From Escherichia coli (GTDB lineage: Bacteria > Pseudomonadota > Gammaproteobacteria > Enterobacterales > Enterobacteriaceae): a DNA stretch of 64,000 nt. Made by a program: the position numbers and the translations under genes. How positions within the stretch are numbered: the stretch's first letter is position 1; each line of letters opens with the position of its first letter. Where the stretch lies: the NCBI RefSeq assembly GCF_048403405.1, contig NZ_CP183129.1. One strand, 5' to 3'. Below the pieces are notes generated by a model. It was not told the origin of the DNA, ran no database searches, and saw only the letters and a list, made by a program, of their open reading frames with translations. Shown here one piece after another: positions 4,035 through 35,479 of the stretch.

Positions 4035-5667
4035 CCTACTGATAGCGATGATAATCGTTGCGCTAATCTGGCCTGCAACCGCGCTCAGAGCGGCAGTGAG
4101 CAAAACAACCTGGGCGGATGCACCGGCACGCGAGTTTGTGTTTGTCGAAAACAACTCAGACGACAACTTTTTCGTCACTCCTGGCGGGGCGCTGGATCCG
4201 CGCCTGACCGGTGCCAACCGCTGGACCGGTTTAAAATACAATGGTTCAGGAACCATCTATCAGCAAAGTCTCGGCTACATTGATAACGGTTACAACACCG
4301 GCCTTTATACCAACTGGAAGTTTGATATGTGGCTGGAAAATTCACCAGTTTCATCTCCTTTAACTGGCTTGCGCTGCATCAACTGGTACGCAGGGTGTAA
4401 TATGACCACCAGTCTTATCCTGCCGCAAACCACCGACGCCAGTGGATTTTATGGCGCGACGGTGACCAGCGGCGGCGCGAAGTGGATGCACGGCATGTTG
4501 TCAGACGCGTTTTACCAGTATCTGCAACAAATGCCCGTCGGCAGCAGCTTTACAATGACCATCAATGCCTGCCAGACCTCTGTGAACTATGACGCCAGTA
4601 GCGGCGCACGCTGTAAGGATCAGGCCTCCGGCAACTGGTATGTTCGCAACGTCACCCATACGAAAGCAGCAAATCTGCGGTTGATAAATACCCACTCGCT
4701 GGCGGAAGTATTTATCAACAGCGACGGAGTACCGACTCTGGGCGAAGGGAACGCCGACTGCCGGACGCAAACCATCGGCAGCCGTTCAGGATTAAGTTGT
4801 AAGATGGTTAACTATACCCTGCAAACAAACGGACTCAGCAACACCTCAATCCATATATTCCCGGCGATCGCCAACTCGTCGTTAGCCTCGGCCGTCGGGG
4901 CGTACGATATGCAGTTCAGTCTGAATGGCAGTTCATGGAAACCGGTGAGCAATACTGCCTATTACTACACCTTCAACGAGATGAAGAGCGCAGACTCGAT
5001 CTATGTTTTCTTCTCGAGCAACTTCTTTAAACAGATGGTGAACCTCGGGATCAGCGATATCAACACCAAAGATCTATTCAACTTTCGCTTTCAGAACACC
5101 ACATCACCGGAGTCTGGCTGGTATGAATTTTCTACCTCCAACACGCTGATTATCAAACCCCGTGATTTCAGCATCAGTATTATCTCCGATGAATATACTC
5201 AGACACCGTCGCGGGAGGGATATGTCGGCAGCGGCGAGTCGGCACTCGATTTCGGCTATATCGTAACCACCAGCGGTAAAACAGCTGCCGACGAAGTGCT
5301 GATCAAGGTGACCGGACCCGCGCAGGTGATTGGCGGGCGCTCCTATTGTGTCTTCAGCTCCGATGACGGTAAGGCGAAAGTACCGTTCCCGGCGACGCTT
5401 TCCTTTATTACCCGCAACGGAGCTACAAAAACCTACGATGCCGGGTGCGATGATAGCTGGCGGGATATGACCGATGCGCTGTGGCTGACCACACCGTGGA
5501 CTGATATCTCTGGCGAAGTGGGGCAGATGGATAAGACCACAGTCAAATTTTCGATTCCAATGGATAACGCCATTTCGCTGCGTACGGTAGATGATAACGG
5601 CTGGTTTGGCGAAGTCAGCGCTTCAGGAGAAATTCATGTTCAGGCGACGTGGCGTAACATTAACTAA
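4024..5667 (+). CDS. ecpD: Ecp pilus tip adhesin subunit
   Basis: 547-aa secreted protein, overlaps ecpC end; operon position. Confidence 0.88.
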
Positions 5668-6346
5668 GGCCCTGCTGACAGCGGTCTGTATGCTGGCGGC
5701 ACCTTTGACACAGGCGATTTCGGTCGGCAATCTGACATTTTCGCTGCCGTCCGAGACTGACTTTGTCAGCAAACGTGTAGTGAATAACAACAAAAGCGCA
5801 CGGATATACCGTATTGCCATCAGTGCTATCGATAGCCCGGGCAGCAGTGAATTGCGCACCCGACCGGTGGATGGTGAACTGCTTTTCGCCCCCCGCCAGC
5901 TGGCGTTGCAGGCTGGTGAGAGCGAGTATTTTAAATTTTACTATCATGGTCCACGGGATAACCGCGAGCGCTACTACCGGGTCTCATTTCGCGAGGTCCC
6001 CACTCGCAACCAGACAAGACGCAGCCCAACCGGCGGCGAGGTTAGCACGGAGCCGGTGGTGGTGATGGTTACCATTCTGGTAGTACGACCACGTCAGGTT
6101 CAATTTAAATGGTCCTTCGACCAGGTGACAGGAACGGTAAGTAACACTGGCAACACATGGTTTAAGCTACTGATTAAGCCAGGATGTGATTCGACCGAAG
6201 AGGAAGGCGATGCCTGGTACCTACGTCCGGGAGACGTTGTTCATCAGCCTGAGTTACGTCAGCCGGGGAATCATTATCTGGTCTATAACGACAAATTCAT
6301 TAAGATTAGCGATTCCTGTCCGGCTAAGCCCCCTTCGGCGGACTAA
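5636..6346 (+). CDS. ecpE: Ecp pilus second chaperone
   Basis: Start at [14 protein letters not shown]; 236 aa; shares motifs with EcpB ([19 protein letters not shown] vs [20 protein letters not shown]). Confidence 0.85.
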
Positions 6347-6658
6347 GACTTATCCATCGGTCAAGGGAAGAACTCCACCTCAGAGACTCAAAAATCGTTT
6401 AAATAATGTGGAAGCGATCGTCAATGTCACCTGTAACGATGGGCTTTCTCATATGTACACCATAGTGTTCAGGAGACGCGGAAAGGTACCAGGCAGCCTG
6501 CTAACGAGTGGTTTATTCACGAATTAGTACGTAAAATCGGTAACGGCTGGAAATCATTCAATACTCACACTATCGAAAGTTCCCCAGCCAACCGCGGTAC
6601 GTTCTTACATACGATGTACCGCTGTTCTCTTTACGATTTATAGCTGTACTGGTGAATT

Positions 6659-6988
6659 ATGAGCAATCTGAATCCATGCATGACGTGTGGTGCCTGTTGT
6701 GCATTTTTCCGCGTCTCTTTTTACTGGGCCGAAGCCGACGATGCTGGCGGTACCATTCCCGCCAGGCTCACTGAACAAATATCCCCTTTTCACCGATGCA
6801 TGAGCGGTACCAATCAGAAAAACCCCCGATGTATTGCCCTTGCAGGAACACCGGGCAAAAATGCCTGCTGCACGATATATAAAAATCGATCGTCCACGTG
6901 CAGAGAATTCGCCATGTCTGGTGAGAACGGAGTCGTCAATGAGGCTTGCAATCGTGCAAGAGCTAAATACGGGCTGACACCGTTATAA
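6659..6988 (+). CDS. ykgJ: YkgJ-family putative zinc/iron-sulfur cluster protein (UPF0153)
   Basis: 109-aa ORF with [11 protein letters not shown] and further Cys motifs. Confidence 0.85.
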
Positions 6989-7011
6989 ATATGCAATAAT
7001 TAATTGCACTG

Positions 7012-7044
7012 CCCCGCCAGCTATAATCGCGGGGCTTCGTTTTT
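7012..7044 (+). terminator. Putative rho-independent terminator downstream of ykgJ
   Basis: ccccgc ... gcgggg stem followed by cttcgttttt. Confidence 0.4.
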
Positions 7045-7195
7045 CAGGGATAACAAAACCCGAAACTTCTTCCATCTGCCAGCAACAATGCCTCTTCCTC
7101 TATAGTGTTCTCCGGATCTACAGCATCCTGAAGTAGCGCGATGTACTCACGGGCTATCTGCTTCAGAAAGTAAAAAGCAATGTTTTTAACCTATA

Positions 7196-7223
7196 AAAAT
7201 GGCGCTGCATTTGCGCCATTTTT
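7196..7223. terminator. Putative bidirectional terminator between ykgJ and yagU
   Basis: aaaatggcgc-tgcattt-gcgccatttt perfect hairpin flanked by A and T runs on both sides. Confidence 0.5.
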
Positions 7224-7236
7224 ATTATTCAATGCA

Positions 7237-7851
7237 TTATCTGTTTGAGCCTAAAGGGATCTCAGGGTCTGGCTCATGAGTAATTCTGTTTCGTAAATCT
7301 CTGCGAATAATTTCAATGGACCAGAACCAGACTAAATGTCCAAAAATTTCAGAAACATTCTCATACCACGGGAGATCAAACAGAGGTGGCGTCAGTCCCA
7401 TGAGAGGGAATGAAATCATATGAACAAAAAGTTGGGCTAAAGCACCTGCCAGTAAGCCCTGCCAGAGTTTAATTTTTGGAAATACTTCAGCGACCACACA
7501 ATAACCGACAGCAAACACTATCGAAAAGATAATGTGCGTAACACCAACCCAGTTAAAGACATGCCCGGCAAAGGTATAAACAGCCGCATTGGGATCTGTC
7601 AGCCCCAACCAGTCTCGAAGAAAAATATACGGAGGATTGAGAAAATTACGGGAGCAATCAATTTGCCCAGCAGCCCTGATTAATGATTCCGGGCCACACG
7701 CTGCATTAAACATATCCACCGGGCTACGTGGCGGCAATGGAACTTCAGCCCCCCACTTCACAAATGCGGAAACAACGCCAGCAATCAGCCCAATGAATGC
7801 AGCAAGACCATAACGTCTGCGGTTCGGTGGAGTTTGTTCAAATATATTCAT
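7237..7851 (-). CDS. yagU: Inner membrane protein YagU (DUF1440)
   Basis: 204-aa [33 protein letters not shown], multi-TM. Confidence 0.9.
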
Positions 7852-26271: not shown

Positions 26272-27729
26272 GTGTCTGAACTGTCTCAATTATCTCCACA
26301 GCCGCTGTGGGATATTTTTGCCAAAATCTGTTCTATTCCTCACCCGTCCTATCATGAAGAGCAACTCGCTGAATACATTGTTGGTTGGGCAAAAGAGAAA
26401 GGTTTCCATGTCGAACGCGATCAGGTAGGTAATATCCTGATTCGTAAACCTGCTACCGCAGGTATGGAAAATCGTAAACCGGTCGTCTTGCAGGCCCACC
26501 TCGATATGGTGCCGCAGAAAAATAACGACACCGTGCATGACTTCACGAAAGATCCTATCCAGCCTTATATTGATGGCGAATGGGTTAAAGCGCGCGGCAC
26601 CACGCTGGGTGCGGATAACGGTATTGGTATGGCCTCTGCACTGGCGGTTCTGGCTGACGAAAACGTGGTTCACGGCCCGCTGGAAGTGCTGCTGACCATG
26701 ACCGAAGAAGCCGGTATGGATGGTGCTTTTGGCTTACAGAGCAACTGGTTGCAGGCTGATATTCTGATTAACACCGACTCCGAAGAAGAAGGTGAAATCT
26801 ACATGGGTTGCGCGGGGGGTATCGACTTTACCTCCAACCTGCATTTAGATCGTGAAGCGGTTCCAGCTGGCTTTGAAACCTTCAAGTTAACCTTAAAAGG
26901 CCTGAAAGGCGGTCACTCCGGCGGTGAAATCCACGTTGGCCTGGGTAATGCCAACAAACTGCTGGTGCGCTTCCTGGCGGGTCATGCAGAAGAACTGGAC
27001 CTGCGCCTTATCGATTTCAACGGCGGCACACTGCGTAACGCCATCCCGCGTGAAGCCTTTGCGACCATTGCTGTCGCAGCTGATAAAGTCGACGCACTGA
27101 AATCTCTGGTGAATACCTATCAGGAGATCCTGAAAAACGAGCTGGCAGAGAAAGAGAAAAATCTGGCATTGCTGCTGGACTCTGTTGCGAACGATAAAGC
27201 TGCCCTGATTGCGAATTCTCGCGATACCTTTATTCGTCTGCTGAACGCCACCCCGAACGGTGTGATCCGCAACTCCGACGTGGCAAAAGGTGTGGTCGAA
27301 ACCTCCCTGAACGTCGGTGTGGTGACCATGACTGACAATAACGTAGAAATTCACTGCCTGATCCGTTCTCTGATCGACAGCGGTAAAGACTACGTGGTAA
27401 GCATGCTGGATTCGCTGGGTAAACTGGCTGGCGCGAAAACCGAAGCGAAAGGCGCATATCCTGGCTGGCAGCCGGACGCTAATTCTCCGGTGATGCATCT
27501 GGTACGTGAAACTTATCAGCGTCTGTTCAACAAGACGCCGAACATCCAGATTATCCACGCGGGCCTGGAATGTGGTCTGTTCAAAAAACCGTATCCGGAA
27601 ATGGACATGGTTTCTATCGGGCCAACAATCACCGGTCCACACTCTCCGGATGAGCAAGTTCACATCGAAAGCGTAGGTCATTACTGGACACTGCTGACTG
27701 AACTGCTGAAAGAAATTCCGGCGAAGTAA
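26272..27729 (+). CDS. pepD: Cytosol nonspecific dipeptidase (aminoacyl-histidine dipeptidase) PepD
   Basis: 485-aa ORF from a GTG start: SELSQLSPQPLWDIFAKICSIPHPSYHEEQ... Confidence 0.96.
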   Translation: MSELSQLSPQPLWDIFAKICSIPHPSYHEEQLAEYIVGWAKEKGFHVERDQVGNILIRKPATAGMENRKPVVLQAHLDMVPQKNNDTVHDFTKDPIQPYIDGEWVKARGTTLGADNGIGMASALAVLADENVVHGPLEVLLTMTEEAGMDGAFGLQSNWLQADILINTDSEEEGEIYMGCAGGIDFTSNLHLDREAVPAGFETFKLTLKGLKGGHSGGEIHVGLGNANKLLVRFLAGHAEELDLRLIDFNGGTLRNAIPREAFATIAVAADKVDALKSLVNTYQEILKNELAEKEKNLALLLDSVANDKAALIANSRDTFIRLLNATPNGVIRNSDVAKGVVETSLNVGVVTMTDNNVEIHCLIRSLIDSGKDYVVSMLDSLGKLAGAKTEAKGAYPGWQPDANSPVMHLVRETYQRLFNKTPNIQIIHAGLECGLFKKPYPEMDMVSIGPTITGPHSPDEQVHIESVGHYWTLLTELLKEIPAK

Positions 27730-27740
27730 TTACAATAATG

Positions 27741-27760
27741 TCCACGCCTGCGGGCGTGGA
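27741..27760 (+). terminator. Putative pepD terminator hairpin
   Basis: Perfect inverted repeat tccacgcc-tgcg-ggcgtgga 12 bp after the pepD stop. Confidence 0.5.
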
Positions 27761-27776
27761 CTACTGTTTGAAGCCA

Positions 27777-28019
27777 ATGGCTATCTATATCGAAATAACA
27801 AAACATTATGAAACTCATGAAAAGGTCGCATATTTATATAGCTGCGACCATATTTCATGGGGAGAATTTCTGATCACCAAAGAAGGTTTTGCGCTGGAAT
27901 CCGTGAAAGAACTTAAGGGTGAAAAGCAGAAATTTTATATGTTCAGAGCCTGGGGCAAAGTCAGGAGAGCATACTTAACCACGGGAGAATTCCCCCAGGA
28001 AACATGTTACGCCGCTTAA
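27777..28019 (+). CDS. Hypothetical small protein (80 aa)
   Basis: ORF MAIYIEITKHYETHEKVAYLYSCDHISWGEF... starting just after the pepD terminator; no family recognised. Confidence 0.35.
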   Translation: MAIYIEITKHYETHEKVAYLYSCDHISWGEFLITKEGFALESVKELKGEKQKFYMFRAWGKVRRAYLTTGEFPQETCYAA

Positions 28020-28035
28020 AGTCAGAGTTATTTTT

Positions 28036-28545
28036 TCATGCATTTACCATTTTGGCATTACGCCTGCGCCACATGGCAATGGCGGCAGCCACTAATGCCA
28101 GTTCCAGTAAAAACGACCAGTGTAATAAAAAATTGAGCCACCACGGATGATGTACCGCCGTAATATGAAAGAGTGCAAAGGGTTGGTTAACGAAAGGCAT
28201 CAACCACCAGATATCACCGACCAGCGTATCGAGTAATAAATGCACGATACCATTCAGGCAAAACACCACGCCCAACCACGCCGGAAGTTTATTCTTCGCA
28301 ATTGCGGCCCAGACTAATGTCGCCGCCAGCAGAGCAAACCATAATAATGGCCAATGAGACGGGTAAAGATGATGATGTCGTTGCCCGTTATCAACCAGAT
28401 AGCACCAAAAAAGATCAAAATCGGGCGCAACGGACCCAACTAAGCCAATAACCATCGCCCAGCGCGCATGACGAGCAATCAGTGGCAAGCGTTTCATTAA
28501 AGTACAAGTTATTAAATAACCAGCCGGAAGATGACCGATAAACAT
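28036..28545 (-). CDS. DUF457/YdjM-like membrane-bound metal-dependent hydrolase
   Basis: MFIGHLPAGYL... and PDFDLF motifs resembling E. coli YdjM; multiple TM segments; His-rich. Confidence 0.55.
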   Translation of the reverse strand: MFIGHLPAGYLITCTLMKRLPLIARHARWAMVIGLVGSVAPDFDLFWCYLVDNGQRHHHLYPSHWPLLWFALLAATLVWAAIAKNKLPAWLGVVFCLNGIVHLLLDTLVGDIWWLMPFVNQPFALFHITAVHHPWWLNFLLHWSFLLELALVAAAIAMWRRRNAKMVNA

Positions 28546-28606
28546 GACTATTCCTTTCGTTTTTCCCGCCGCTTTCACATAGAAAACGGCGGGAGACATT
28601 CCTCAA

Positions 28607-29221
28607 TTACACAGCGACAAAAGCCATCCCTGTAAACGTTCGTCGCGGGTTGCCACGTTCAATCTGGTGATGGAACATTCGCCGCTGCGATTTCAGCGCC
28701 GCGCTATTTTTCTGTTGCTGCTGCTCCAGCTTCCAGGCAATCAGCAATCGCGCCAGCCGTTTGTTAGCATGCTGGCTGCGCTCTGACTGAACCTTCACGC
28801 TAATCCCGGATGCCAAATGCGTGGCGCGTACCGCCGAGTCGGTTTTATTGACATGTTGACCGCCCGGCCCCGACGAACGCAGCGTCTCATACCGGATCGC
28901 ATCGGATTGCTCCTGCTCATCAGCGGTAAAACGCCCAATGCCCAGAAACCAGTTTTTGCGCCCATGATGAGGCCGATACGGACTCGGACAAATCCACTGA
29001 ATAGTGCCGCACCAACTTTCGCTTAATGCCCATGCATTATCGCCATCCAGAGAAACCAGCGCTGAACGCAGCGTGTCAGAGTAGCGGCCCGTTTCTGTTT
29101 CCAGCACCGTTACCGCGACGTCTTGTCGGGTAGCTTCTTTAATCAGCCTGTCCAGTGCCTTTTTCACTGCGAGACAACATTCTTCCGGCCCCTGCGCTGA
29201 GGAGAGTTGTAGCAAGATCAT
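28607..29221 (-). CDS. prfH: Peptide chain release factor homolog PrfH
   Basis: GGQ motif ([28 protein letters not shown]); start at [11 protein letters not shown]; overlaps rtcB2 stop. Confidence 0.85.
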
Positions 29222-30369
29222 CCTTTTTTCCCTCCACTGTTTTTGAGCGTTAGCACCGGACGCAGTCGCGCGACAGGAATAATTAAACCGGCTTGCACCA
29301 GACATTGCACCACACTTTCAGCCGATTTATAGGCTTGTGGCGCTTCTTCGAAGATGAGTTGTTTATCGCGACAAATCACCCGGCTGCCAAGTTCAGTACG
29401 CGAGAGTTGCGTCGCCGTGTAATTCGCTGCCAGACGCCCTTTACACTCGGTGCGCCCCCATTTACGCCCTGCCCCATGCGCCAGCGAGTGGAGCGTTTTT
29501 TCGTTCGCAACAGGTTTAACCAGCCAGGAGTAATCACCGCGTGAACCGGGAATAATCACCAGACCGTTGTCATCCGGCGTGGCACCTTTACGATGCAACC
29601 AGCCCTGTTGATCGCCGATTTGGCACGCGCTAACAAAGTTATGCGCCACATCCAGAACCGGACTTCCGGTGGCCTTAACTTGTTGCATTATGCGCAAAGC
29701 GATCATCTGGCGATTAATACGCGCAAACGCCAGCGCATCGTCATGTTCCGCAATATACCGTAGCGCGTCGTCACTGCCTTCAGGCAAACCATGATGCGAA
29801 AACGAGGCAATATGCCGCTGTAAAATAGACTGCCCCAACCCCCTCGAGCCGCTATGAACCAGCAGTTGCAGATGCTGCGCATCCAGACCTGCCAGTGCAA
29901 ACAGTTCAGCGTCGATGATTTCATCAACTTGTTGCAGTTCTGCAAAGTGGTTTCCGCCACCGATAGAGCCAAGCGAGCTGCGCCACGAATGCTGTGCAAA
30001 TGCTGACGGCAGGTTTTCCTCCAGCCAGCTTTCTTCAGCAACGTCATCCAAAGCTGATAATCGCTTTTCAAACTTATCGGCGTTGTATTTACGAGCGAGA
30101 ATATCTGTTTGCCATAGCGCCATGCCGCAGCCGATATCATTGCCGACCAGTGCCGGGTAAAAACGGCCTGCGGAGAAGAACGCTGCGCCAATCGGGTAGC
30201 CGCGTCCGGGATGTAAATCTGGCATCCCTACTACGCGCTGCATGTTGGGTAAATTTGCCGTGGTGTGTAATTGTTGGATCGCTAAACTCTCGATCCACAG
30301 GTCATCAGATGCGATGGTAAATACCGCATCGGATAAGGGACGAATATATTTGCCCATGTACCATTCCAT
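29218..30369 (-). CDS. rtcB: RtcB-family RNA ligase (RtcB2, PrfH-associated)
   Basis: 383-aa ORF with RtcB-type metal-binding His/Cys residues ([31 protein letters not shown]). Confidence 0.85.
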
Positions 30370-30675
30370 TTATACTCGTCATACTTCAAGTTGCATGTAC
30401 TGCGGCTGCGTTCGTTCACCCCAGTCACTTACTTATGTAAGCTCCTGGGGATTCACTCGCTTGTCGCCTTCCTGCAACTCGAATTATTTAGAGTATATAA
30501 ATATTAAAAATCAGGAAATGGCAGACGAATCCAGGGCAAGAAAAAAAGAATTAATCCTGGAAAGGTCTGCAAAGAGTCATTGATAAAGGATTTGTCATGA
30601 TTTACCTCCTTGCAGTTTGTGGAATAAGAAAACGCGCACATACTAGGCGGGTGTTATTTTCATTGCAAGCTGGAT

Positions 30676-31128
30676 TTAATGTTGCGGTTTATATCGCATA
30701 GAAAAATTAGTAAACCACGCTCCCCTGCATTCAACGCGCTGCTGCTTAACTGTCTGAAAACCATAACGTTCAAAAAAGGGTTTTGCGGTTATGCTGGCAT
30801 CTACCGTTAGTTCGGATTCAGACTTAATCAATGGTTTTAACAAAGCGCTGGCAACCCCACAGCGGGTGTATTCAGGGTCAACAAATAACATATCGATATA
30901 GTGTTCAACGCGGGAAATAAAACCAACCGGTTGTGCATTAATGATCGCAACCCACACTTGTGATTTCGCGAGTTTCTCCTTCCAGCGAGATTCGTCAATC
31001 TGCGCCCAGGCGGCAATTTGTTGTGGTGAATAATGCTGACTGGCGGTCATCGTAACCGCTCTAAGGAAAATAGCGCATAGTTGCTGAAAATCGCCAGGCT
31101 GATAGTTTCTTATTTGTATGTTATTCAT
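30676..31128 (-). CDS. yafP: GNAT family acetyltransferase YafP
   Basis: 150-aa ORF MNNIQIRNYQPGDFQQLCAIFLRAV... Confidence 0.9.
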   Translation of the reverse strand: MNNIQIRNYQPGDFQQLCAIFLRAVTMTASQHYSPQQIAAWAQIDESRWKEKLAKSQVWVAIINAQPVGFISRVEHYIDMLFVDPEYTRCGVASALLKPLIKSESELTVDASITAKPFFERYGFQTVKQQRVECRGAWFTNFSMRYKPQH

Positions 31129-31137
31129 AATATAAAT

Positions 31138-31536
31138 TCAAAAACGCATGCGAAACGCTTCTGCCATTTTTCCAATTTTATGCATTTGGTTGTTATCTCG
31201 AGCCAGTTTATGAGGTTCAGGCTTCAGAATGGCAATGAGCAACCATGCTTGCTCATCAAACGCACCCTGACAATATACCAAATGCGCTTCGTCATTCGTT
31301 CTGCTGAATTGGCACAACTGTGGCGGAAATGGATTATTCACATTTGCCAGATGAATATGAGCAACTCGCTCAAATTTGATTAATGGCCAGGTAAACGAGT
31401 CGTCGTAGAGTGCATCGCGACCAAATATATCTGGCAAAATACCGTCACGCTTATAGGAAATAAAATCCGCCGTTAACGCATCAAGTTCCTCTGCTGTAAG
31501 TTGCAGGCGAATAAGTTTTGTTTTGAATACCCGCAT
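31138..31536 (-). CDS. yafO: Ribosome-dependent mRNA interferase toxin YafO
   Basis: 132-aa ORF MRVFKTKLIRLQLTAEELDALTADFISYKRDG... Confidence 0.9.
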   Translation of the reverse strand: MRVFKTKLIRLQLTAEELDALTADFISYKRDGILPDIFGRDALYDDSFTWPLIKFERVAHIHLANVNNPFPPQLCQFSRTNDEAHLVYCQGAFDEQAWLLIAILKPEPHKLARDNNQMHKIGKMAEAFRMRF

Positions 31537-31538
31537 CC

Positions 31539-31832
31539 TTATTCCTTAAAGTCATTGAAATCATCATCCGTCATATCATTAAGATATTGTTCAGCGCGGC
31601 GTGTAATTTCCTCTAATCTTGCAGCACTCGGACGGAAGCGCGCCTTTATGGGCTTTTTCTCCTCTTGTTCAGCAAGCATGTCCATTAACGCTTCGAATGC
31701 GCTGGCACTTAAGAGATATCCTGCGGGGCGATTATTAGAAAGAACCGCAACCGGTTGATCAATAAAGTATTTAGCTGGGTTTTTACGTAACTCAGTGATA
31801 TTGACCGATTTTTCAGCGAGAATTCGATGCAT
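31539..31832 (-). CDS. yafN: Antitoxin YafN
   Basis: 97-aa ORF MHRILAEKSVNITELRKNPAKYF...; 2-bp gap to yafO. Confidence 0.9.
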   Translation of the reverse strand: MHRILAEKSVNITELRKNPAKYFIDQPVAVLSNNRPAGYLLSASAFEALMDMLAEQEEKKPIKARFRPSAARLEEITRRAEQYLNDMTDDDFNDFKE

Positions 31833-32955: not shown

Positions 32956-32971
32956 CTGGTAAAGTATACAG
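32956..32971 (-). promoter_or_regulatory. LexA (SOS) box upstream of dinB
   Basis: cactggtaaagtatacagtg; contains CTG-N10-CAG palindrome 17 bp upstream of the dinB start. Confidence 0.8.
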
Positions 32972-33009: not shown

Positions 33010-33740
33010 CTAGCGCGTTCGCTGCGAATGCACCTGCTGCTTATCCAGCTTTTGCACCAGCGGCTGCACCACTTTATCCCCATGCTGACCAAAGTATTGA
33101 TACAGCGTATCGGACGCACTTTTGGTCAGCACCATAATCTCAATGCGTCGGTTGCCCGCGCTTTGCGGATTTTTCGCGTCCAGCAGCATCTGGTCCGCCA
33201 TCGCGCTCACCTGCATCACTTTATCTTCCGGCATTCCGGCCTCTTCCAGCACCCGACGAGCCGAAAGCGCGCGATCGCCCGAAAGGTTCCAGTTGTTGTA
33301 GATATTGTTTTTGTAGGCCATCGCATCGGTATGCCCGGTAATAATAATTTTGTTATCGAGCGAGTCGAACACTGGCGCGAGCTCCACCAGCAAAGTTTTA
33401 AAGAACGGCATAATCTGTGCGCTGCCGCGTTCAAACATATTGCGGTTCTGGTCATCTTTAATCAGCACGCGCAGTCCCTGGGGAACAATCTCCATCTCCA
33501 GATTCGCTTCCATATGTGCATCACGGGCAATGGTGTTGATACTGGTCGCCAGCTCGCCAAGCTCAGTAGCGGATTTCTTCTTCAGCAGCGCCGTTTTCTC
33601 ATTGACGTCACGCGCTTTTTTCTCCGTCTCTTCCGGCACCGCCACGGTGGCAGGTTTTGGCGGATGAGACAGGCTGATTTTATTTAACGGCGACAACCCG
33701 CCGCCATTGAAAATCGACTGCCCGTGCAGCGCGGCGATAA
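33010..33740 (-). pseudogene. lafU: Lateral flagellar motor protein LafU (MotB-like), N-terminally truncated: Flag-2 remnant
   Basis: C-terminal OmpA-like domain present (...IIITGHTDAMAYKNNIYNNWNLSGDRALSARRVLEEAGMPEDKV...NRRIEIMVL); no N-terminal TM anchor. Confidence 0.7.
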
Positions 33741-35479
33741 TGCTTTCACGCTCGGATTTACTGACGCTGTTGACAATCAACTTTATCGTCGTCACCAAAG
33801 GGGCCGAGCGTATTTCCGAGGTTTCTGCCCGCTTTACCCTGGACGCGATGCCCGGCAAACAGATGGCGATTGACGCCGATCTTAACGCCGGGTTGATCAA
33901 CCAGGCGCAGGCGCAAACCCGGCGTAAAGATGTTGCCAGCGAGGCCGATTTCTACGGCGCAATGGACGGGGCATCGAAGTTTGTGCGCGGGGATGCCATC
34001 GCCGGGATGATGATTCTGGCGATCAACCTGATCGGCGGCGTCTGTATCGGGATCTTCAAATACAACCTGAGCGCCGATGCCGCCTTCCAGCAATATGTGC
34101 TGATGACCATCGGCGACGGACTGGTGGCGCAGATCCCGTCCCTGCTGCTTTCCACCGCGGCGGCGATTATCGTCACCCGCGTCAGCGACAACGGCGATAT
34201 TGCCCATGACGTGCGTAACCAGTTGCTGGCAAGCCCGTCGGTGCTCTACACCGCCACCGGGATCATGTTTGTGCTGGCGGTTGTGCCGGGGATGCCGCAT
34301 CTGCCGTTTTTGCTGTTCAGCGCCCTGCTTGGTTTTACCGGCTGGCGGATGAGCAAACGCCCGCAGGCGGCGGAGGCGGAAGAGAAAAGCCTCGAAACAC
34401 TGACCCGAACCATCACCGAAACCAGCGAGCAACAGGTCAGTTGGGAAACTATTCCGCTGATCGAGCCCATCAGCTTAAGCCTCGGCTACAAGCTGGTGGC
34501 GCTGGTGGACAAAGTACAGGGTAACCCGCTCACCCAGCGGATTCGCGGCGTGCGGCAGGTGATTTCTGACGGTAACGGCGTGCTGCTGCCGGAGATCCGC
34601 ATTCGGGAAAACTTCCGCCTCAAGCCCAGCCAGTACGCCATTTTCATCAATGGCATTAAGGCTGATGAAGCGGATATTCCGGCGGATAAACTGATGGCCC
34701 TGCCCTCCAGCGAAACCTACGGCGAGATTGACGGCGTGCTGGGGAACGACCCGGCGTACGGGATGCCGGTGACCTGGATCCAGCCCGCGCAGAAAGCGAA
34801 AGCGCTGAATATGGGGTATCAGGTGATCGACAGCGCCAGCGTGATTGCCACCCATGTGAACAAGATTGTCCGCAGCTATATTCCTGATTTGTTTAACTAT
34901 GATGACATCACGCAGTTGCATAACCGTTTGTCGTCGATGGCACCGCGCCTGGCGGAAGATTTGAGCGCGGCGCTCAATTACAGCCAATTGCTGAAAGTGT
35001 ACCGGGCGCTGCTGACCGAAGGCGTTTCCCTGCGCGATATTGTCACCATCGCCACCGTGCTGGTCGCCAGTAGCACAGTGACCAAAGATCATATCCTGCT
35101 GGCGGCCGATGTGCGCCTGGCATTGCGGCGCAGCATTACCCATCCGTTCGTTCGCAAGCAGGAGCTGACGGTGTATACGCTGAATAATGAGCTGGAAAAT
35201 CTGCTCACCAACGTGGTGAATCAGGCGCAACAGGGCGGGAAAGTGATGCTCGACAGCGTGCCGGTCGATCCGAATATGCTCAACCAGTTCCAGAGTACGA
35301 TGCCGCAGGTAAAAGAGCAGATGAAAGCGGCGGGGAAAGACCCGGTGCTGCTGGTGCCGCCGCAGTTGCGTCCTTTGCTGGCGCGTTATGCAAGGTTGTT
35401 TGCGCCGGGGCTGCATGTGCTGTCGTATAACGAAGTGCCGGACGAGCTGGAGTTGAAGATTATGGGGGAGTTGAGTTGA
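33707..35479 (+). pseudogene. lfhA: Lateral flagellar export protein LfhA (FlhA-like), N-terminally truncated: Flag-2 remnant
   Basis: FlhA-like from ...NFIVVTKGAERISEVSARFTLDAMPGKQMAIDADLNAG onward; lacks the first roughly 100 residues. Confidence 0.7.

Follow-up and report, generated by a model that had tools for sequence, protein, structure and literature searches.

Some Escherichia coli chromosomes carry two short extra genes beside prfH and rtcB2, which encode a peptide chain release factor and an RNA ligase, and such a locus raises the question of whether the extra genes share in the work of the pair or are simply its neighbors. The locus considered here lies in a stretch of 64,000 nucleotides from an E. 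coli chromosome (assembly GCF_048403405.1, contig NZ_CP183129.1), referred to below as the window. Its gene order is pepD, orf80, a DUF457 gene, prfH, rtcB2, and yafP-yafO-yafN-dinB, and the listing of open reading frames (ORFs) shows the four ORFs between pepD and yafP to be open and intact. We consider it probable that the stretch from pepD to dinB is a mosaic, in which the rtcB2-prfH pair, the DUF457 gene, and orf80 are three independent units in a variable Escherichia interval and not one four-gene system, with orf80 as an orphan immunity gene. As judged from sequence comparison, there is good support for assigning orf80 to a toxin-immunity family not described before, as an orphan gene of the immunity type.

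The original prediction, made from this sequence, had described the pair together with the two extra genes, and all four ORFs lie where it placed them. Positions 27600 to 30800 of the window are 100% identical to E. coli TUM14771, in which the Prokaryotic Genome Annotation Pipeline (PGAP) annotates the same four genes. The order there is frsA, gpt, and pepD on the plus strand, a 93-amino-acid hypothetical protein on the same strand, and, on the minus strand, a "metal-dependent hydrolase," prfH, an RtcB-family ligase, yafP, yafO, yafN, dinB, and lafU. One point of orientation has to be corrected: orf80 was said to be convergent with pepD, but it occupies the plus strand, is co-directional with pepD, and converges with the DUF457 gene.

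orf80 and its putative toxin partner

On the evidence of its sequence, orf80 (positions 27777 to 28019, plus strand) is a real gene, and its product of 80 amino acids is predicted to be soluble. Across six Escherichia alleles, its ratio of nonsynonymous to synonymous substitution (dN/dS) is 0.15, similar to that of yafP (0.16) and rtcB2 (0.13). An AlphaFold (AF2) model has a β4-α-β fold, with a predicted local distance difference test score (pLDDT) of 92 and a predicted template modeling score (pTM) of 0.80; a search for a PDB fold counterpart returned none, the best E value being 0.29. The ORF had been called unassigned, which agrees with the lack of any match to it in Pfam, NCBIfam, PADLOC, or PDB sequences, and PADLOC gave no match for any of the other genes either. 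Nevertheless, when 1.84 billion representative proteins were searched with a profile, 369 clusters emerged at an E value of ≤1e-3, and their members are nearly all stand-alone proteins of 78 to 84 amino acids that match end to end. PGAP calls a longer protein of 93 amino acids from position 27738. We place the start at the methionine at 27777 because the Salmonella, E. albertii, and divergent E. coli homologs begin there and because one Escherichia locus (L016) has a stop codon directly upstream of this methionine. Within the 13 codons that PGAP adds lies a perfect hairpin at positions 27740 to 27761 (9 bp with a 4-nucleotide loop; minimum free energy [MFE], −19.7 kcal/mol; z = −3.1), which begins 10 nucleotides past the pepD stop codon. 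It is terminator-like on both strands and is probably the pepD 3′ hairpin or a weak terminator.

The genes found in front of orf80 homologs carry the argument for an immunity function. In one Salmonella enterica genome (GCA_006736985.1; locus L009), a homolog with 56% identity to orf80 starts 10 nucleotides past the gene for a 1,683-amino-acid Rhs protein, which itself follows a DUF4123 gene. The core of this Rhs protein ends in NPTQWVDPLGL, an instance of the PxxxxDPxGL boundary motif, and is followed by a C-terminal domain of 141 amino acids (locus positions 5568 to 5990) that we regard as a putative toxin domain. In other Salmonella strains (L008, L010, and L011), the orf80 homolog likewise lies 10 nucleotides behind the same domain, which is found there in orphan Rhs C-terminal ORFs of 167 amino acids. 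Overall, the domain is about 140 residues long and all-helical, with invariant residues H72, D83, R94, D104, HEYFES110-115, E118, and H129.

The pairing recurs beyond Salmonella. Homologs of the putative toxin domain occur in metagenomic cassette arrays beside genes for Tox-SHH, Tox-MPTase4, Tox-ART-HYD1, SUKH, and Imm26, and in loci L095 to L097, L100, and L103 a co-oriented ORF of the orf80 family follows the toxin homolog directly. The relationship of these downstream ORFs to orf80 is evidenced by pairwise E values of 4e-7 and 5e-10 and by an hhalign E value of 1.2e-7. A blind test was made from the opposite direction, starting from a randomly chosen representative of the orf80 family (P0162, in L103), and the ORF immediately upstream of it carries the toxin domain (E = 7e-47). 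Because homologs directly follow the toxin domain, the standard signature of a toxin-immunity pair, orf80 would be a gene of the immunity type. A Bacillus ORF behind a toxin fragment (L098) was not counted, because its comparison with orf80 fell short of significance (hhalign E = 0.01). Separately, the C-terminal region of a second Rhs protein in one of the Salmonella loci (L010, positions 3 to 2666) gives a weak match to the toxin profile (E = 1.8e-9), which suggests that diverged toxin paralogs may coexist within one Salmonella rhs locus.

The toxin half of the pair was found only outside Escherichia. The toxin profile has no match in the six frames of the window or in the Escherichia loci, and when the Salmonella toxin and immunity DNA was compared by blastn with 5,426 E. 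coli genomes, only the immunity part matched, in 310 genomes. Since the partner toxin gene is not detected in E. coli, orf80 is best described as an orphan immunity gene. Orphan immunity genes are a known category, and the role proposed for them is protection from the effectors of non-kin cells (PMC10539506, PMC12247911). We infer that orf80 neutralizes its cognate putative toxin. The toxin domain would be delivered as the C terminus of a Salmonella Rhs protein, for which the neighboring DUF4123 gene suggests delivery by a type VI secretion system (T6SS), and E. coli would keep the immunity half only, presumably neutralizing a toxin injected by a competitor. A hypothetical protein (of the WP_000106438 type) found in about 6% of E. 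coli, in E. albertii, and in further Escherichia species is thereby reassigned to a widespread family of proteins of about 80 amino acids, whose partner is a toxin domain not described before. Confirmation would establish a new Rhs/polymorphic toxin-immunity pair, and E. coli would be keeping immunity to a toxin whose gene turned up in Salmonella and not in E. coli.

The rtcB2-prfH pair and the DUF457 gene

The repair pair is already well understood. rtcB2 (positions 29218 to 30357, minus strand, 379 amino acids) encodes an RtcB-family RNA ligase that matches Pfam RtcB (E = 3e-75) and two equivalog models, NF007153 (641 bits; cutoff, 407) and TIGR03073, release_rtcB (621 bits; cutoff, 272). 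Its start was placed at 30357 because the NCBIfam alignment begins at residue 5 of the longest ORF, the ATG of which is the end at 30369 given earlier. The motifs NDIGCGM, GGGNHF, HSGSRG, AHNF, and AHGAGR are visible in the translation and may hold the metal-binding and guanylylation residues of RtcB ligases. prfH (positions 28607 to 29221, minus strand, 204 amino acids) encodes peptide chain release factor H and matches the equivalog TIGR03072 over the full length of the model (1 to 200 of 200) with 327.9 bits against a cutoff of 166.65. The protein is about 98% identical over 202 amino acids to chain 8 of PDB 7SA4, which is EcPrfH solved on a damaged ribosome. It keeps the GGQ peptidyl-hydrolase motif and lacks release factor domain 1, the alignment spanning only residues ~115 to 307 of release factor 2 (RF2). 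Read directly from the sequence, the rtcB2 stop and the prfH start overlap as ATGA, with prfH directly behind the ligase gene in one operon. What had been proposed for the pair thus stands, namely, a GGQ-bearing PrfH beside a full-length ligase, the overlapping stop and start codons, and the loss of both genes to pseudogenes in K-12, as seen in the K-12 derivative J53, where prfH has no N terminus and rtcB no C terminus.

Intact pairs are common. Of 5,426 complete E. coli genomes, 2,674, or about half, retain at least 80% of the sequence that K-12 has lost by deletion. Among 2,757 matches to the body of rtcB2/prfH in the E. coli collection, 6 are on plasmids, so the pair is sometimes plasmid borne. 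In an E. albertii locus (L012, positions 5839 to 7588), the gene caller gives an RtcB of 405 amino acids and a PrfH of 166, yet tblastn aligns both at full length with 95 to 96% identity; this locus may differ in its rtcB stop and its ATGA coupling.

According to published work, RtcB2-PrfH first rescues and then repairs ribosomes that colicin E3 has cut (PMC9304027, PMC9223846, PMC13166195), and K-12 gains protection from colicin E3 when it receives rtcB2-prfH, or rtcB2 alone, on a plasmid. Given its near identity to the EcPrfH of PMC9304027 and 7SA4, the PrfH encoded in the window would be expected to free the peptide from colicin E3-cut ribosomes. In the known module, whose two genes are translationally coupled, a colicin E3-type ribotoxin cleaves the 16S rRNA of a 70S ribosome at A1493/G1494, PrfH releases the peptide from this damaged ribosome, and RtcB2 then religates the rRNA.

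The DUF457 gene (positions 28036 to 28545, minus strand) encodes a protein of 169 amino acids that, as had been predicted, is a YdjM-like, histidine-rich membrane protein; it is polytopic. It matches PF04307 with 35.4 bits against a gathering cutoff of 29 (aligned over residues 20 to 172 of the long ORF), contains 11 histidines, and has at least three strongly hydrophobic segments (Kyte-Doolittle ≥1.6). The subfamily is well conserved, and an alignment of 28 sequences has invariant columns at H5, D42, D44, HHH57-59, H64, H102, D106, D111, H142, and E148, a histidine and aspartate cluster that looks like a metal site. The gene has a dN/dS of 0.17 among Escherichia. The protein has no NCBIfam match and no solved structural relative; "metal-dependent hydrolase" is a PGAP label only. 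A literature match for "DUF457" proved to be DUF4579 in a paper on Cap1 and is irrelevant.

Is this gene tied to the pair? The neighborhoods of its homologs were surveyed by scanning the subfamily alignment over one genome per species, which yielded 80 loci, and by seeking rtcB or prfH within 8 kb. Both were found in four loci (three from Escherichia and one from Superficieibacter electus), all of them the same dinB...pepD locus, and the remaining 76 have neither. Clustering of the neighbors in those 76 loci revealed no conserved neighbor, the largest clusters being antisense ORF artifacts or generic ATP-binding cassette (ABC) ATPases. A release factor-like neighbor in Sulfuricella (L085) is ordinary prfB, which encodes RF2, and a coincidence. 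Superficieibacter and another enterobacterium have the order dinB-rtcB-prfH-DUF457-pepD. In Klebsiella aerogenes, a DUF457 protein with 60% identity occupies the same slot (dinB-yafP-DUF457-pepD), and neither rtcB nor prfH is present. In our reading, DUF457 is a positional neighbor of the repair pair and not a conserved or dedicated partner. It would be a stand-alone inner-membrane protein and the older resident of the slot next to pepD.

Between prfH and DUF457 lies a spacer of 61 nucleotides, with a 13-bp stem-loop (positions 28564 to 28594, minus strand; MFE, −24.7 kcal/mol; z = −5.2) that has no U-tract and was not reported by the terminator scan, followed by the Shine-Dalgarno sequence AAGGA and the DUF457 ATG. 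All across Escherichia the stem-loop is kept, and in L016 both sides of the stem have changed in a compensatory way. In this genus, DUF457 is probably the last gene of a transcript that runs on from prfH, as its strand, the short structured spacer, and its own Shine-Dalgarno sequence would allow.

A search for LexA or other stress-regulator boxes had been suggested for this spacer and for the one upstream of rtcB2; a scan for CTGT-N8-ACAG with at most one mismatch found none in positions 28546 to 28606 or 30358 to 30675. The only nearby site that resembles a LexA box, CTGGTAAAGTATACAG at positions 32956 to 32971, lies upstream of dinB and has one mismatch. Regulation by the SOS response belongs to ydjM as a gene and not to the PF04307 family. 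The regions upstream of the 80 DUF457 homologs contain no perfect LexA box and six with one mismatch, which against a background of 4.6% is no enrichment. No sigma-54 (−24/−12) motif was found upstream of rtcB2, DUF457, or orf80, and a sigma-70 consensus scan gave no minus-strand match between yafP and rtcB2. That spacer contains a strongly structured repeat that we take to be of the enterobacterial repetitive intergenic consensus/intergenic repeat unit (ERIC/IRU) type, from the presence of both ERIC primer motifs (positions 30375 to 30498, minus strand; MFE, −53.4 kcal/mol; z = −7.7). It ends 17 nucleotides before the rtcB2 start, has a subthreshold Rfam match to Vibrio V_AS5 (49 bits; E = 1.6e-8), and accounts for the several megablast places per genome. 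The repeat could affect transcription or read-through into rtcB2. The terminator scan found no terminator-like site in the spacer, and read-through from the LexA-controlled dinB-yafNOP operon into rtcB2 is possible.

The variable interval and the alternatives

In E. coli, orf80 and DUF457 lie in an 871-bp segment that separates pepD from prfH and is present in 329 of 5,426 genomes (325 of them at ≥80% coverage), always on the chromosome and essentially as one copy per genome. About 88% of the E. coli genomes with an intact pair, such as LHM10-1, have neither gene. In segment-less strains, the pepD-prfH spacer is instead a 56-bp sequence with a repetitive extragenic palindrome (REP)-like element (L002 and L003, positions 1631 to 1686), and PrfH ends in MAFIEG, not MAFVAV. 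A search for remnants of the segment in a 64-bp spacer of such strains gave only chance matches of 7 to 8 nucleotides, and a clean deletion was rejected, the event being a replacement by the REP-like palindrome. The palindrome reads GCTGCCGGATGGCG...CGCCTTCCGGCAG, and a similar motif, CTGCCGGAGGGCG, lies 3′ of prfH in Superficieibacter (L019).

The segment also occurs in E. albertii, E. whittamii, and one further Escherichia species, and we infer that it is the old state, since lost by most E. coli lineages. If the four-gene form is ancestral, the locus may have decayed stepwise, orf80 and DUF457 being lost first and the K-12-type deletion of rtcB2/prfH coming afterward, and this decay could serve as a lineage marker. 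The E. albertii locus has another variation, an ORF for a predicted membrane protein of 171 amino acids between pepD and orf80 (L012, positions 4450 to 4965), which has no family match. Neither the window nor any of the other Escherichia loci carries this ORF, and it could add a further small gene of a protective or immunity type to the slot. On the dinB side, the yafN-yafO toxin-antitoxin pair (window positions 31138 to 31832) is missing in LHM10-1 and QA-1986 83, where yafP overlaps the dinB end, and constitutes a second presence/absence polymorphism within the interval. Just past dinB, at positions 33010 to 35479, lafU and a FHIPEP/FlhA-like ORF are remnants of a Flag-2 lateral flagellar cluster, and the G+C content climbs to about 0.59.

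Several observations weigh against a mosaic of independent units. The segment is almost never found without an intact pair: the whole 3.2-kb region is present at ≥80% in 327 genomes, that is, in 327 of the 329 that carry the segment. Moreover, prfH and DUF457 share a strand, the terminator scan reported nothing between them, and lineage-specific operon membership is possible. For the orf80 part of the reading, the putative toxin domain has no Pfam match and no PDB sequence or fold match, and the E. coli toxin search was made by blastn, which reaches down to about 65 to 70% identity, so that a diverged toxin gene could escape it. The first two observations are what would be expected if Escherichia and Superficieibacter had recruited DUF457 into a co-regulated three-gene operon as an accessory of RtcB2-PrfH, for example, for survival of colicins or ribotoxins at the membrane. 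The conserved stem-loop without a U-tract, the Shine-Dalgarno sequence of DUF457, and the common rtcB-prfH-DUF457 order in Superficieibacter (67 to 78% protein identity) favor such an operon as well, and counter-conflict systems are known to accrete accessory genes. We nevertheless regard it as unlikely: DUF457 sits in its K. aerogenes slot without the pair, shows no linkage to it in 76 of 80 species, and is missing from most E. coli with an intact pair, and the co-occurrence in E. coli is confounded by phylogeny, being confined to a few related lineages. Moreover, K-12 lacks both extra genes (as seen in J53) and is still protected from colicin E3 by plasmid-borne rtcB2(-prfH), which supports the independence of DUF457 from the pair. 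The original prediction had left a functional link of the two genes to the pair open and named conserved co-occurrence across genomes as a check. That check largely speaks against a link: DUF457 is found without the pair, and the orf80 homologs have toxins as partners.

A wider version of linkage would make the stretch from pepD to dinB an "anti-competitor islet," in which the repair module, an orphan immunity gene against an Rhs/T6SS toxin of new fold with the HEYFES motif, and a DUF457 protein that aids the survival of incoming toxins have been co-selected. The common thread, an anti-competitor role for rtcB2-prfH and the immunity gene, is suggestive, but we think co-selection of the whole improbable. 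Less probable still is a single anti-ribotoxin unit of all four genes, in which the toxin countered by orf80 would hit the translation apparatus, so that immunity and repair meet the same attack. Both rtcB2-prfH and the immunity gene defend against competitor-delivered toxins, and the genes are kept together in E. albertii, in E. whittamii, in one further Escherichia species, and in E. coli strains that we assign to the phylogroup D/F type (042 and ST648). Yet orf80 lies on the opposite strand, is absent from Superficieibacter and K. aerogenes, and has homologs elsewhere that sit in toxin cassettes away from any rtcB or prfH, and the toxin fold yields no RNase or other assignment. Under the islet reading, too, the HEYFES toxin might target the translation machinery; were this so, immunity and repair would form two layers against one class of attack. 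It is also very unlikely, in our judgment, that orf80 is a real small protein with no immunity function, such as an antitoxin-like regulator or a remnant of some other role. The absence of Pfam, NCBIfam, PADLOC, and PDB matches leaves room for such a role, as does one sampled homolog (L101/L102) that has no toxin gene on its short contig, but five contexts show the family paired with the toxin domain, one of them with a full Rhs protein in which the DPxGL motif stands right before that domain. We therefore return to the mosaic as the preferred reading, and its clear negative on linkage between neighboring genes guards against reading too much into adjacency.

Comparison with known systems

Extra genes beside the core pair, as seen here in some genomes, have a precedent. 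A survey of RFH-RtcB neighborhoods describes accessories such as tetratricopeptide repeat (TPR) proteins, Pol-beta nucleotidyltransferases, zinc-finger proteins, and charged-helix proteins (Burroughs and Aravind 2019, PMC6514570). The main text of that paper names neither DUF457 nor orf80, and their linkage to the pair does not extend beyond one syntenic locus. The DUF457 protein shares its Pfam family, polytopic form, and histidine richness with YdjM, an inner-membrane protein that is under LexA control in E. coli and Salmonella, but it represents a distinct subfamily, as evidenced by its 35 bits to the family model and the lack of an NCBIfam match, and its gene has no LexA box.

The pair itself is the E. 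coli RtcB2-PrfH module (Tian et al. 2022, PMC9304027; Maviza et al. 2022, PMC9223846; 7SA4), with the same genes, locus, and ATGA coupling. Its PrfH is about 98% identical, with GGQ kept and release factor domain 1 missing, and no functional difference was noted. The extra 0.87-kb segment joins prfH inside its last codons, and for this reason the last three residues of PrfH differ: the protein ends in MAFVAV here, whereas the common allele and 7SA4 have MAFI.. at this place.

For orf80, the closest parallels are the orphan immunity genes of T6SS, Rhs, and polymorphic toxin systems. It departs from them in being a single copy between pepD and rtcB2-prfH, outside any rhs or T6SS locus or multigene array, and in belonging, like its toxin, to a family not in Pfam, with a protective function that is putative. 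In other respects, it resembles the orphan immunities of the Serratia Rhs NADase (PMC10539506), of gut Bacteroidales (PMC12247911), and of a Salmonella Typhi islet (PMC7400221): its product is predicted to be a small cytoplasmic protein, its homologs stand directly behind a variable Rhs C-terminal toxin domain, and it is likewise kept under purifying selection without a cognate toxin.

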